Source: a virus (lineage: Duplodnaviria; Caudoviricetes). From it: a stretch of DNA of 47,589 bases. The translations under genes and the position numbers were made by a program. The stretch is from IMG/VR virus record IMGVR_UViG_3300022670_000197, positions 1-47,589 of that record; one strand, given 5' to 3'. Below are positions 39,088-41,012 of this stretch, in pieces. The notes beneath the pieces were generated by a model. The model ran no database searches and was not told where the DNA came from. It was given only the letters and a program-made list of their open reading frames with translations. Every line of letters starts with the position of its first letter. Positions within the stretch are counted from its first letter, which is position 1.

Positions 39088-39139
39088 ATTTGAGTAAAGC
39101 GATGAGGCGAAAATGCGCAAAGGATTAAAAAGGTGGCTA

Positions 39140-39541
39140 ATGAAAGTGAAAAAGATCTATCCTACTGAAAGCAAACTCCATGAGTCAGTGGCCCAGTTGC
39201 TACATTTAAGACTGCATGAGAGTGTTATCTGGACTACCGTTGAAAATAGCAATCAACAAGGCGGGGTAGCTGGGGTTATCAAGCAGGCTAAATTAAAAAA
39301 GAAGGGGGTTAAAGCTGGTTGGCCTGATATTCAGATATTTTGGCACTCCGATTATTACGCTAACTTTAGCTGTATCATGATAGAGTTAAAGTCTCAGACT
39401 GGACCGGTGCAGAAGCACCAGACAGCCCTACATAAGGAGCTTAAGGCGAAGCTTGGTGTGCCTACCTTCATCTGCCGGTCAATTGATGACGTGGAGAAGG
39501 TTTTGATTGATGAAAGCGTGCCTTTGAAGAATGTTGGGTAG
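39140..39541 (+). CDS. VRR-NUC family nuclease (putative Holliday junction resolvase)
   Basis: TESKLH..KKGVKAGWPDIQI..IELKSQTG..Q..ICRSIDDV. Confidence 0.85.
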   Translation: MKVKKIYPTESKLHESVAQLLHLRLHESVIWTTVENSNQQGGVAGVIKQAKLKKKGVKAGWPDIQIFWHSDYYANFSCIMIELKSQTGPVQKHQTALHKELKAKLGVPTFICRSIDDVEKVLIDESVPLKNVG

Positions 39542-39747
39542 TGATTATGGAGTTAAGAGAATCGGATTTAAGAATTGACAGCATCGATGTAAACCCTGAT
39601 GAGTTTATAGTAATACTTAGGGTGTATGGAGTACGCATAGTGCATTTACCAACAGGTATAGAGGCTATGTGCTCGCATTTTAAATCACAACATAAGAACC
39701 GAAAGATTTGCACGGAAATGATAGAGTACGCGCTGGTTAATTTGTAA
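39541..39747 (+). CDS. Stand-alone class I release factor domain 3 (RF-1 domain) lacking GGQ
   Basis: DLRID..VRIVHLPTGIEAMC..KSQHKNR aligns with RF1 DLRID..IRITHLPTGIVVEC..RSQHKNK. Confidence 0.85.
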   Translation: MIMELRESDLRIDSIDVNPDEFIVILRVYGVRIVHLPTGIEAMCSHFKSQHKNRKICTEMIEYALVNL

Positions 39748-39775
39748 GTGCCAGTGAAATTTATCATTTGAGGAG

Positions 39776-39918
39776 TGGTGGGTAGTGACAGGGCGTTAAT
39801 CCTGCAATTGATGTTATCCTCAGAATCACGTCTGCGCAGACAATCGCATTCATTACGTTCACATCCCTCGTCTTTCGACTCCGTGTCGGTGTGCTTCAAC
39901 TTCAGCACCGCACCACCC
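39776..39918 (-). ncRNA. 143-nt tRNA-like RNA (RNA-B)
   Basis: GGGTGGTG/CACTACCC closing stem plus ACCA; D-like GTGC/GCAC arm; T-like GCAGG/CCTGT arm; GAAA tetraloop hairpin. Confidence 0.6.
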
Positions 39919-39964
39919 ATCTACTTGTAAACTTACAAGTACTCAGGCTAACTTACAAGTAAAA

Positions 39965-40052
39965 TGGTGGAAGGCCCGGGAATCGAACCCAGTGAGACGA
40001 TACCGCCAGCAGATTTACAGTCTGCCTCCGCTCCATACGGGGTTATCCTACC
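39965..40052 (-). tRNA. tRNA-Tyr(GTA), degenerate acceptor stem
   Basis: GCAGA-CTGTAAA-TCTGC anticodon arm, long variable arm, CTGGG-TTCGATT-CCCGG T arm, encoded ACCA. Confidence 0.8.
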
Positions 40053-40053
40053 A

Positions 40054-40222
40054 TGGTGGGTGGTGGCAGCGGTGTGATCCGCAGCATCGCAAAGAAGAGA
40101 GCGCAGGGTTTCACTGCGTGTACATTCTCTGCGTTGATAAGCTAAACCCTCTCGCTGACTTTTGTTCATTACCAGGTTATCAGCCCAATAACTCCTACTC
40201 GCCTTGATTGGTTTCGCCACCC
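40054..40222 (-). ncRNA. 169-nt tRNA-like RNA (RNA-A)
   Basis: GGGTGG/CCACCC closing stem plus ACCA ending 1 nt before tRNA-Tyr; GCGG/CCGC hairpin at T-arm position; nested CGCAGAGA/TCTTTGCG and CGCAG/CTGCG helices. Confidence 0.5.
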
Positions 40223-40258
40223 ATAAAACATAGTAGTCTATTACAACATACCATAAAT

Positions 40259-40495
40259 TCACTCCGTAGACTCTTTCAGCAAAAACCTTTTAGCCAGATC
40301 AAGCAACCAGCCATTATGTCTAAGGTCTGAATCACTGGAGGCTATGTAAAGCTTGCCGTCTTTCTCCTGACCAACTACTACAACACTTTGCAGGTCTGAT
40401 TCAATAGCCCCCTTAAGCACCCTCTCAGGCGGGATGTCCAGGTCTGTCATCTTATGTAGGTAGGTTACGTTATCCGTCAATCTACTATCTGCCAA
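40259..40495 (-). CDS. Conserved phage hypothetical protein
   Basis: TDLDIPPERVL..VVVVG..GKLYIASS; probable TTG start at 40480 overlapping the upstream stop. Confidence 0.7.
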   Translation of the reverse strand: MADSRLTDNVTYLHKMTDLDIPPERVLKGAIESDLQSVVVVGQEKDGKLYIASSDSDLRHNGWLLDLAKRFLLKESTE

Positions 40496-40776
40496 TCTTC
40501 ACCAAGCATATCCGTCTGAGATGCTTGCCAGCCTGGTTCAAATTTATTAGTTAAGGTGCACGCATCGAAGGTATACATATCGATATGGGCGCTTATAGCA
40601 CCTGATGGTAGTGGTTCAGTTCCATTATCAAGTGCTTTGTAGTATGGCGTGCCGTCTGGATACTCAACATGAGGCGAACCGGGTACATAAATAAGAAACC
40701 TAACCTTCCCATTCCAGTCCTTACGAGCTACTTTCTTACCAGCCTTTAAGGCCTCAATTGCTTCACCGAAATTCAT
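40477..40776 (-). CDS. tad2: Tad2-like / DUF2829 anti-defence nucleotide-sponge protein
   Basis: MNFGEAIEALKAGKKVARKDWNGK..GWQASQTDMLGEDW, the family signature shared with SPO1 Tad2. Confidence 0.8.
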   Translation of the reverse strand: MNFGEAIEALKAGKKVARKDWNGKVRFLIYVPGSPHVEYPDGTPYYKALDNGTEPLPSGAISAHIDMYTFDACTLTNKFEPGWQASQTDMLGEDWQIVD

Positions 40777-40792
40777 TATATTTCCTTTCAAG

Positions 40793-40826
40793 AAAAAACC
40801 ACCTGAGAAAGGGTTTTTCAGGTGGC
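40793..40826 (-). terminator. Terminator hairpin in the tad2 leader
   Basis: CCACCTGA../TCAGGTGG stem followed by T6 on minus strand. Confidence 0.7.
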
Positions 40827-40857
40827 TTGGTAGCGTAAGCTATACGAAGAGGATTGT

Positions 40858-40886
40858 ATTGTAGCAGGGTGGTGTTGCTGTGTCAA
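40858..40886 (-). promoter_or_regulatory. Near-consensus sigma70 promoter
   Basis: TTGACA-17nt-TACAAT on minus strand. Confidence 0.75.
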
Positions 40887-40957: not shown

Positions 40958-41012
40958 TTCTGACATAAGGTTATCACTATGTCAGATGGTCACAATCTGT
41001 GACCATCTGACA
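40958..41012. repeat. Overlapping inverted repeats
   Basis: TCTGACATA/TATGTCAGA pair, and perfect 15-bp TGTCAGATGGTCACA-ATC-TGTGACCATCTGACA. Confidence 0.85.

Follow-up and report, generated by a model that had tools for sequence, protein, structure and literature searches.

A stand-alone release-factor domain of a tailed phage with a rewritten GGQ loop: a candidate pseudo-release factor

Proteins built on the catalytic domain of release factors have been surveyed by Burroughs and Aravind, who list RF1/RF2, ArfB, PrfH, ICT1, C12orf65 and the inactive MRPS35 (PMC6514570); a stand-alone phage form is not described in section 2.4 of that survey and the word "bacteriophage" is absent from its main text. 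ArfB/YaeJ, ICT1 and C12orf65 retain GGQ, and their binding to ribosomes depends on a basic C-terminal tail (PMC3950681); YaeJ shortened by residues 101-140 was found entirely in the soluble fraction (100%), with 0% associated with ribosomes (Table 1). Two eukaryotic organellar proteins, MRPS35 and chloroplast PrfB3, have lost the catalytic Gln or GGQ and are re-used for binding, according to the relevant passages of PMC6514570 and PMC5897788. In the available text of Mizuno et al. (PMC6375957) the terms "RF-1" and "peptide chain" do not occur, and our literature search, which covered few subscription papers, found no paper on GGQ-less phage release-factor domains.

Here we analyzed a 47.6-kb tailed-phage contig (the window, i.e., the whole stretch of 47,589 nt) that carries terminase, major head, head-closure, DNA-ejection, amidase and replication genes, and in it an ORF on the plus strand whose product has the fold of RF1/RF2 domain 3. 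The first-pass annotation had reported a 68-aa ORF with the motifs DLRID, RIxHLPTGI, C and SQHKN, and our reading of 39541 (GTG) to 39747 (+) agrees with the frame and the motifs, the second of which reads RIVHLPTGI; the length is likelier 66 aa (39547..39747), because the close homologues start at the MEL that follows ATG 39547, and the GTG at 39541, which gives the 68-aa product, is kept as an alternative start. Residue numbers below follow the 66-aa version. The catalytic loop corresponds to residues 12-28 (39580..39630, +), where E19-F20-I21 align with G-G-Q within the clade motif NPxExISI; it is followed by the HLPTG hairpin (residues 33-37; 39643..39657, +), as in RF1/RF2, and by SQHKNR (residues 47-52; 39685..39702, +) at the start of a long helix, retained across GGQ-less relatives. 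The stretch from DLRID to VRIVH holds 17 residues, compared to 18 in RF2, and GGQ is absent from all six frames of 39401-39900, in agreement with the earlier statement that the GGQ loop is replaced and that no frame encodes one. That annotation had also seen neither a decoding domain nor an ArfB-type basic tail, and this holds: the product, bounded at 66-68 aa by the upstream gene and its own stop codon, has no PCRF domain match in Pfam, is missing class-I release-factor domains 1, 2 and 4, and ends with the long helix at a net charge of -2. Codon usage of the ORF frame is phage-gene-like (+0.10, vs. -0.10 to -0.76 in the five other frames). Directly upstream lies a VRR-NUC nuclease gene (39113..39541, +; PF08774, E=5e-6, above cut-off), the stop codon of which ends 5 nt before ATG 39547 and overlaps the GTG at 39541, and translation of the two genes is presumably coupled.

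Several comparisons connect the product to release factors. The Pfam RF-1 model (PF00472) matched at E=7e-7, over residues 31-65 only and with 29.6 bits against a cut-off of 35 bits; the phrog_20323 profile matched residues 6-62 on model positions 3-59 of 73 (E=1.8e-9); solved RF2 chains were found at E of about 1e-4 in a single-sequence search; and the family profile matched RF2 at E=1e-22. An AlphaFold model (pLDDT 93; 56-row alignment) has three strands (residues 8-14, 27-33 and 39-42) and two helices, one of three residues at 22-24 and a long one spanning 48-65. When this model was used in Foldseek, all listed rows, to rank 50, were RF1/RF2/PrfH-type chains, the best with TMq 0.82, prob 1.00 and E=1.8e-3, and no listed row reached E<=1e-3. 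A homodimer prediction, run without folded controls, gave a median score of 0.02 against a mark of 0.42, which speaks neither for nor against a dimer. The release-factor fold proposed earlier is thus recovered by Pfam, although below its cut-off, and by Foldseek, and the relationship to RF1/RF2 domain 3, judged from the profiles and the predicted model, is above chance and appears secure.

By sequence the ORF product is not a lone wreck and is placed in an annotated phage family, phrog_20323. A tblastn search of cultured phages returned 108 records at a threshold of E<=1, and 164 when the threshold was relaxed to E<=10. From these 18 records were taken and one was discarded, an Erwinia match that runs antisense inside an unrelated long gene; the annotated proteins from all 17 retained records lack GGQ, a sample that is biased because the query itself is without GGQ. 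The 17 copies belong to Agrobacterium/Rhizobium, Acinetobacter, Vibrio, Pseudomonas and Clostridioides phages. When 50%-identity representatives were searched exhaustively, 82 matched, and GGQ is present in 36 of 84 proteins (the 82 representatives and the two closest proteins). Most members are stand-alone domains of about 70 aa, others are fused N- or C-terminally to varied, unrelated phage modules, and the copies sit among small accessory genes; three Atlas viral clusters of 70-72 aa have 76, 99, and 345 members. For further comparison we assembled 157 domains, consisting of 107 mini or fused phage domains (71 without GGQ and 36 with it), 9 longer viral release factors and 41 canonical RF1/RF2 domains thinned to 80% identity; six chimeric or fragmentary matches, six rows without a recognizable His-Pro-Thr-Gly, and duplicates were omitted. 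In this set GGQ is absent from 71 of the 107 mini or fused phage domains.

The GGQ-bearing mini-domains of 70 aa (P0006, P0007, P0018, P0023, P0088, and others; also L123 and L124) have features of their own. They carry the signature GGQ-H/Q/T-V-G, which differs from the canonical GGQHVN, with Met at position 58 in 97% and a C-terminal IEYGL, and the His of SQHKN is retained in just 18 of the 36 GGQ-bearing mini-domains. Two genes upstream of one of them lies a phrog_1460 gene labeled tRNA amidotransferase (L123:4510-4944, minus strand).

We then compared the loops. Gln precedes the conserved His by 13 residues in all canonical domains (41 of 41). Among the 71 GGQ-less domains, W, M, F, I, or Y occupies position -13 or -12 in 59 (46 of 56 once the set is thinned to 60% identity), whereas loop shuffles lead one to expect 23 (18 after thinning), and none of 5000 shuffles reached the observed counts. 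The loops fall into the classes W (25), GM (20), ExI (8), GF (6), GQ (2), and other (10). Due to the one-residue deletion the register of the loop is uncertain by one, and we therefore describe the hydrophobic residue as lying at or beside the Gln position. The glycine-free NPxExISI loop of the window protein is common to eight relatives (P0001-P0005, P0085-P0087) of equal length and roughly 35-74% identity; over residues 16-24 the nine proteins are 60% identical pairwise, compared to 49% elsewhere, and in P0028 a window-type loop is found inside a longer protein. Outside the loop, the positions of S-Q-H-K/R-N-K/R are retained in 63, 57, 60, 57, 69, and 66 of 70 GGQ-less rows, respectively, a conservation that is partly built in by the searches, which favor SQHKNR-type matches. 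The net charge decreases from +4.9 in canonical domains to +1.3 to +1.4 in mini-domains and stands at -2 in the window protein, the pI of which is 5.8 (median for canonical domains: 9.4). These comparisons indicate that the catalytic loop has apparently been rewritten, not lost, and that its replacement is non-random and predicted to be hydrophobic-tipped. The suggestion that the protein is catalytically dead fits this pattern: having lost Gln along with both glycines, and having no means of delivery to the ribosome, it is almost certainly unable to hydrolyze peptidyl-tRNA.

Since the scaffold is conserved, the hydrophobic tip is selected, the basic surface is missing and the module travels among accessory genes, we favor, tentatively and at somewhat less than even chances, the reading that the ORF product is a pseudo-release factor, a mimic that binds a protein without catalysis, and not a hydrolase or a ribosome ligand. 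Modular fusions and accessory-gene settings are what one would expect of a self-contained binding module. Under this proposal, the domain would derive from a GGQ-bearing phage mini-release factor, the retained HxPTG/C/SQHKNR scaffold would present the new loop, and the hydrophobic tip of the loop would enter a pocket of a host protein, which the phage would thereby titrate or block. The likeliest targets would be proteins that recognize release factors or their fold, such as the methyltransferase PrmC, or a sensor or toxin of host defense that is directed at termination. Lys-to-Met histone mutants inhibit methyltransferases and offer an analogy for a Gln-less pseudo-substrate. A bolder version, which we consider possible but rather doubtful, is that phages repeatedly converted a captured catalytic domain into pseudo-release factors, with Trp, Met, Phe, or Ile in place of Gln, so that it jams a host protein that recognizes release factors (a hitherto undescribed sensor or toxin against phages that acts on termination, or PrmC via a non-methylatable look-alike).

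Several observations count against a protein-binding mimic. No conserved neighbor gene was seen among the 77 of 120 flanking ORFs scanned (11 of 12 loci), and the candidate partner class is one that we infer. The loops differ between clades, so that a single target may not suit all of them, and the loss of both glycines in the window clade makes for a poor fit to mimicry of the GGQ loop; the hydrophobic tip could instead be structural, packed back onto the sheet. Retention of SQHKNR and a fusion to an L7/L12-like domain (see below) both point to the ribosome. PrmC as the partner faces a difficulty of its own, as it grips Gln via its NPPY motif and is specific for closed, multi-domain RF1, according to PMC3152332; this specificity counts against a bare domain as its partner, and the ORF product has neither Gln at the position nor the other release-factor domains.

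That the ORF product instead binds the large ribosomal subunit at the site of release-factor domain 3, and blocks or tunes termination or shields the site, is in our estimate unlikely, yet it has evidence on its side. Besides SQHKNR, basic residues flanking the hairpin are retained in GGQ-less copies. The Pseudomonas syringae phages PHB09, Pyxpy01, and phiPsa381 (Otagovirus) encode a fusion of a GAGGM-type release-factor domain with an L7/L12 C-terminal-like domain (L006:1498-1974, L135:610-1098, and L136:586-978; Pfam E 1e-5 to 3e-7, two of the three above cut-off), and the copies of the Acinetobacter T4-like phages ZZ1, Apostate, and MD-2021a are situated among tRNA genes. The Gln-less MRPS35 in the mitoribosome offers a precedent (PMC6514570). 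Against this, the tail-less YaeJ domain did not associate with ribosomes (PMC3950681, Table 1), the window protein is acidic, and bulky and acidic residues stand in place of the two glycines. Ribosome binding is doubtful given the acidity of the protein and the behavior of tail-less YaeJ, and the same two points weaken the ribosome or RNA binder that the first-pass annotation had offered. Both glycines of GGQ are required to fit the peptidyl-transferase center.

Quite unlikely, in our view, is that the protein forms oligomers and acts as a sponge that soaks up a nucleotide immune signal, a re-use of the fold like that in Acb4, the anti-CBASS sponge of phage SPO1. Acb4 is small and three-stranded, with a dsRBD-like fold akin to that of release factors, which are among its structural neighbors, and its pocket is formed by the beta3-helix loop and helices (PMC11722364), a region that, by presumed analogy, corresponds to one conserved here; in addition, a Tad2-like gene lies 730 nt from the ORF. 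However, Acb4 and other sponges are absent from PDB sequence matches to E=10 with two profiles and from the listed top Foldseek rows, and the conserved residues are simply those of release factors. A sponge would also leave unexplained why GGQ is kept in a third of the family.

The Tad2-like gene belongs to a unit on the opposite strand that converges on the ORF. This unit (39776-40886, minus strand) comprises, in order, a predicted sigma-70-like promoter (40858..40886; 11/12 consensus, extended -10) as its driver, the gene for the Tad2-like protein (40477..40791; PF11195, E=7e-22), a small protein of phrog_11040 with no assigned function (40259..40495), a CCA-ended RNA "A" (40054..40222; 169 nt, 6-bp acceptor-like stem, z -2.1), tRNA-Tyr(GUA) (39965..40052), and a CCA-ended RNA "B" (39776..39918; 143 nt, 7-bp acceptor-like stem). 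It looks like an anti-defense cassette; a phage tRNA-Tyr can counter a tRNA-cleaving retron effector. The gap of 28 nt noted earlier between the stop codon of the ORF and the converging 3' end is confirmed (39748-39775; the CCA that it adjoins is encoded, on the minus strand), and of the "tRNA-like cluster" described there, one member is a real tRNA, tRNA-Tyr, while the two CCA-ended RNAs flanking it are non-tRNA. RNA B is probably a neighbor of the release-factor-like ORF and not part of its unit.

The proposal that the ORF and the tRNA cluster form a translation-focused module is not supported, as the cluster lies on the opposite strand and tRNAs are missing near the GGQ-less IMG/VR copies, although the three Acinetobacter phage copies named above do have tRNA genes around them. 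A GGQ-blind motif pattern identified 36 IMG/VR loci (15 GGQ-less and 21 GGQ-bearing), and a tRNA was present within up to 4 kb of 7 of the 21 GGQ-bearing loci, all of them coding for longer proteins, in comparison to none of the 15 GGQ-less loci, some of which are near-identical copies. Similarly, no annotated tRNAs lie within 1.5-3 kb of the copies in OLIVR5, four Vibrio phages, PHB09, PSV3, and CDMH1. The tRNA-linked class consists of the longer GGQ-bearing phage release factors, not of the mini-domains; six such proteins of roughly 180-220 aa (L094, L095, L100, L110, L115, L116) are encoded 0.3-2.2 kb from tRNA genes. We read the ORF and the tRNA unit as two neighboring accessory units. On the other side of the ORF, the VRR-NUC gene finds a loose echo in a RusA-like resolvase gene that adjoins the release-factor-like gene in L111 and is two genes off in CDMH1, in too few cases for counting.

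This arrangement bears on the notion, which we consider improbable, of a dsRBD-like RNA binder with a role in protecting or handling phage RNA such as the CCA-ended RNAs, in the way PrfB3 serves petB mRNA. RNA B lies just 28 nt away, and the GGQ-less chloroplast PrfB3, which binds and stabilizes RNA (PMC5897788), is a precedent; PrfB3, however, is a whole RF2-related protein and not a bare domain. The window protein is acidic, the RNAs are on the opposite strand under a separate predicted promoter, and tRNAs are absent near all 15 GGQ-less IMG/VR loci.

RNAs A and B deserve a description of their own. Both begin with GGGUGG and have an acceptor-like stem with G3:C70, and their last 27 nt are 74% alike; they are reminiscent of the species 1 and 2 RNAs of T4. 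Neither has an Rfam or ARAGORN match, and we rejected a tmRNA identity on the basis of G3:C70 instead of G3:U70 and the negative ARAGORN result. Pattern scans of IMG/VR for the two RNAs gave no match, and when the RNA region was compared with cultured phages, tRNA-Tyr alone was matched among the best 20 of 42 matches. Among the sequencing runs listed, no RNA run carries the sequence, and the single run that does, which may be where this DNA comes from, showed no variants. In a separate 10.5-kb contig of run X1, both ends of the 143-nt RNA are matched around a different 75-nt middle. Between RNA B and tRNA-Tyr, 39913-39970 contains a 12-nt direct repeat (at 39930 and 39950) and an 18-nt inverted repeat, and a perfect 15-bp inverted repeat, possibly an operator, lies upstream of the replication gene (40980-41012).

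Next, we considered selection. Among 15 pairs of GGQ-less phage copies, dN/dS was 0.08-0.45 in the 10 with finite dS>=0.1 (Nei-Gojobori, about 64 codons), the pairs being non-independent and all from outside the clade of the window; of the remaining pairs, one is synonymously saturated, one identical, and three have four changes or fewer (0.92, 0.14, and 0). Low dN/dS was seen in four separate groups of GGQ-less copies. The annotation would have yielded to a missing RF-1 fold match, or to homologues that all keep GGQ while this copy evolves neutrally as a decaying fragment; as a fold match exists, many homologues are GGQ-less and those, although of other clades, are under purifying selection, the comparison speaks for maintenance.

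A search for DNA of the window clade recovered none. IMG/VR was scanned with four queries, namely the protein itself, P0001, and two alignments, which returned 0, 0, 0, and 1 locus, respectively, and the single locus encodes a 222-aa GGQ-bearing release factor. In the JGI metagenomes (7 of 64 parts), the 80 loci taken from 477 matches were all GGQ-bearing ordinary release factors, and the pattern of the window clade gave 2 chance matches only in GTDB genomes.

Trees were built by quick searches from 66 and 51 columns and are poorly resolved, with most forks open. In the all-column tree (66 columns) the window protein belongs to a group of 56 rows, of which 36 are GGQ-bearing and 20 GGQ-less (SH-aLRT 98), and canonical and long viral release factors are set apart with a support of 98. 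In the loop-free tree (51 columns) it is among 31 GGQ-bearing and 17 GGQ-less rows (support 93), no branch that holds it reaches a support of 95, and at least 13 changes of GGQ state are needed, a count in which the GGQ-less ArfB-like row L096 was scored as GGQ-bearing. As a sign of repeated change these 13 are suggestive only, and the trees may also be compatible with a single origin of GGQ loss. Given the short alignment and the few resolved forks, we regard descent from GGQ-bearing phage mini-release factors with repeated loss of GGQ as likely, and no more than that.

From these data the ORF is a real gene, likely functional and maintained rather than decaying. Decay of a captured release-factor gene, which we hold to be very improbable, would account for a Pfam score below cut-off and for the absence of a partner gene; the low dN/dS is known from other clades, not from this copy, and one close pair elsewhere stands at 0.92, on four changes. 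On the other hand, eight relatives of equal length share the same new loop, the frame is intact with gene-like codon usage, dN/dS is low in four GGQ-less groups, and the loop tip is non-random. Least probable of all, and hardly credible to us, is that the product still releases peptides via the backbone of the residue replacing Gln: catalysis does use the Gln backbone amide (PMC6742477) and GGM-type relatives, which retain the glycines, might stay active, but the window-clade loop is glycine-free and nothing would deliver the domain to the ribosome.

The family itself is already known, catalogued as phrog_20323 and labeled release factor in RefSeq; what is new is that, judged by the alignments, the catalytic loop in this misnamed family is replaced by a selected, apparently hydrophobic-tipped loop. 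Although the database label is "peptide chain release factor", ordinary function as such is impossible for two thirds of the phage mini-domains sampled here. If the pseudo-release factor targets a defense protein, it would expose host immunity that acts on translation termination, and if it targets the ribosome or PrmC, it would represent a new phage route to tune stop-codon reading. Jamming of a protein that recognizes release factors, if true, would amount to a new anti-defense class and a hidden layer of conflict over termination.

Among described systems, RF1/RF2 domain 3 has in common with the ORF product its fold, DLRID, HxPTG, C, and SQHKN, whereas the ORF product is without GGQ and without domains 1, 2, and 4, and is acidic and not basic. 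ArfB/YaeJ, ICT1, and C12orf65 resemble it as a domain 3 without a decoding domain, but differ in their GGQ and in the tail that extends where the ORF product ends at its helix. In comparison to PrfH of the PrfH-RtcB rescue system, the ORF product lacks both GGQ and the decoding-like second domain; none of the 46 other window ORFs scanned has an RtcB label, the flanks of the ORF being VRR-NUC, Tad2-like, and unassigned genes. Acb4 differs in its additional helices and in its tetrameric state (PMC11722364). MRPS35 and PrfB3 share the loss of the catalytic residues, but have extra domains, bind the ribosome or RNA, and are presumably of independent origin. Closest are other members of phrog_20323, such as the copies of Agrobacterium phage OLIVR5 (YP_010107386) and Acinetobacter phage ZZ1 (YP_006488787), stand-alone GGQ-less proteins of 65-78 aa that are 40-44% identical to the ORF product in tblastn, and whose annotation is silent on the lost GGQ; in contrast to these, members of the window clade carry a distinct loop, NPxExISI, and cluster with the GGQ-bearing "MIEYGL" mini-domains.
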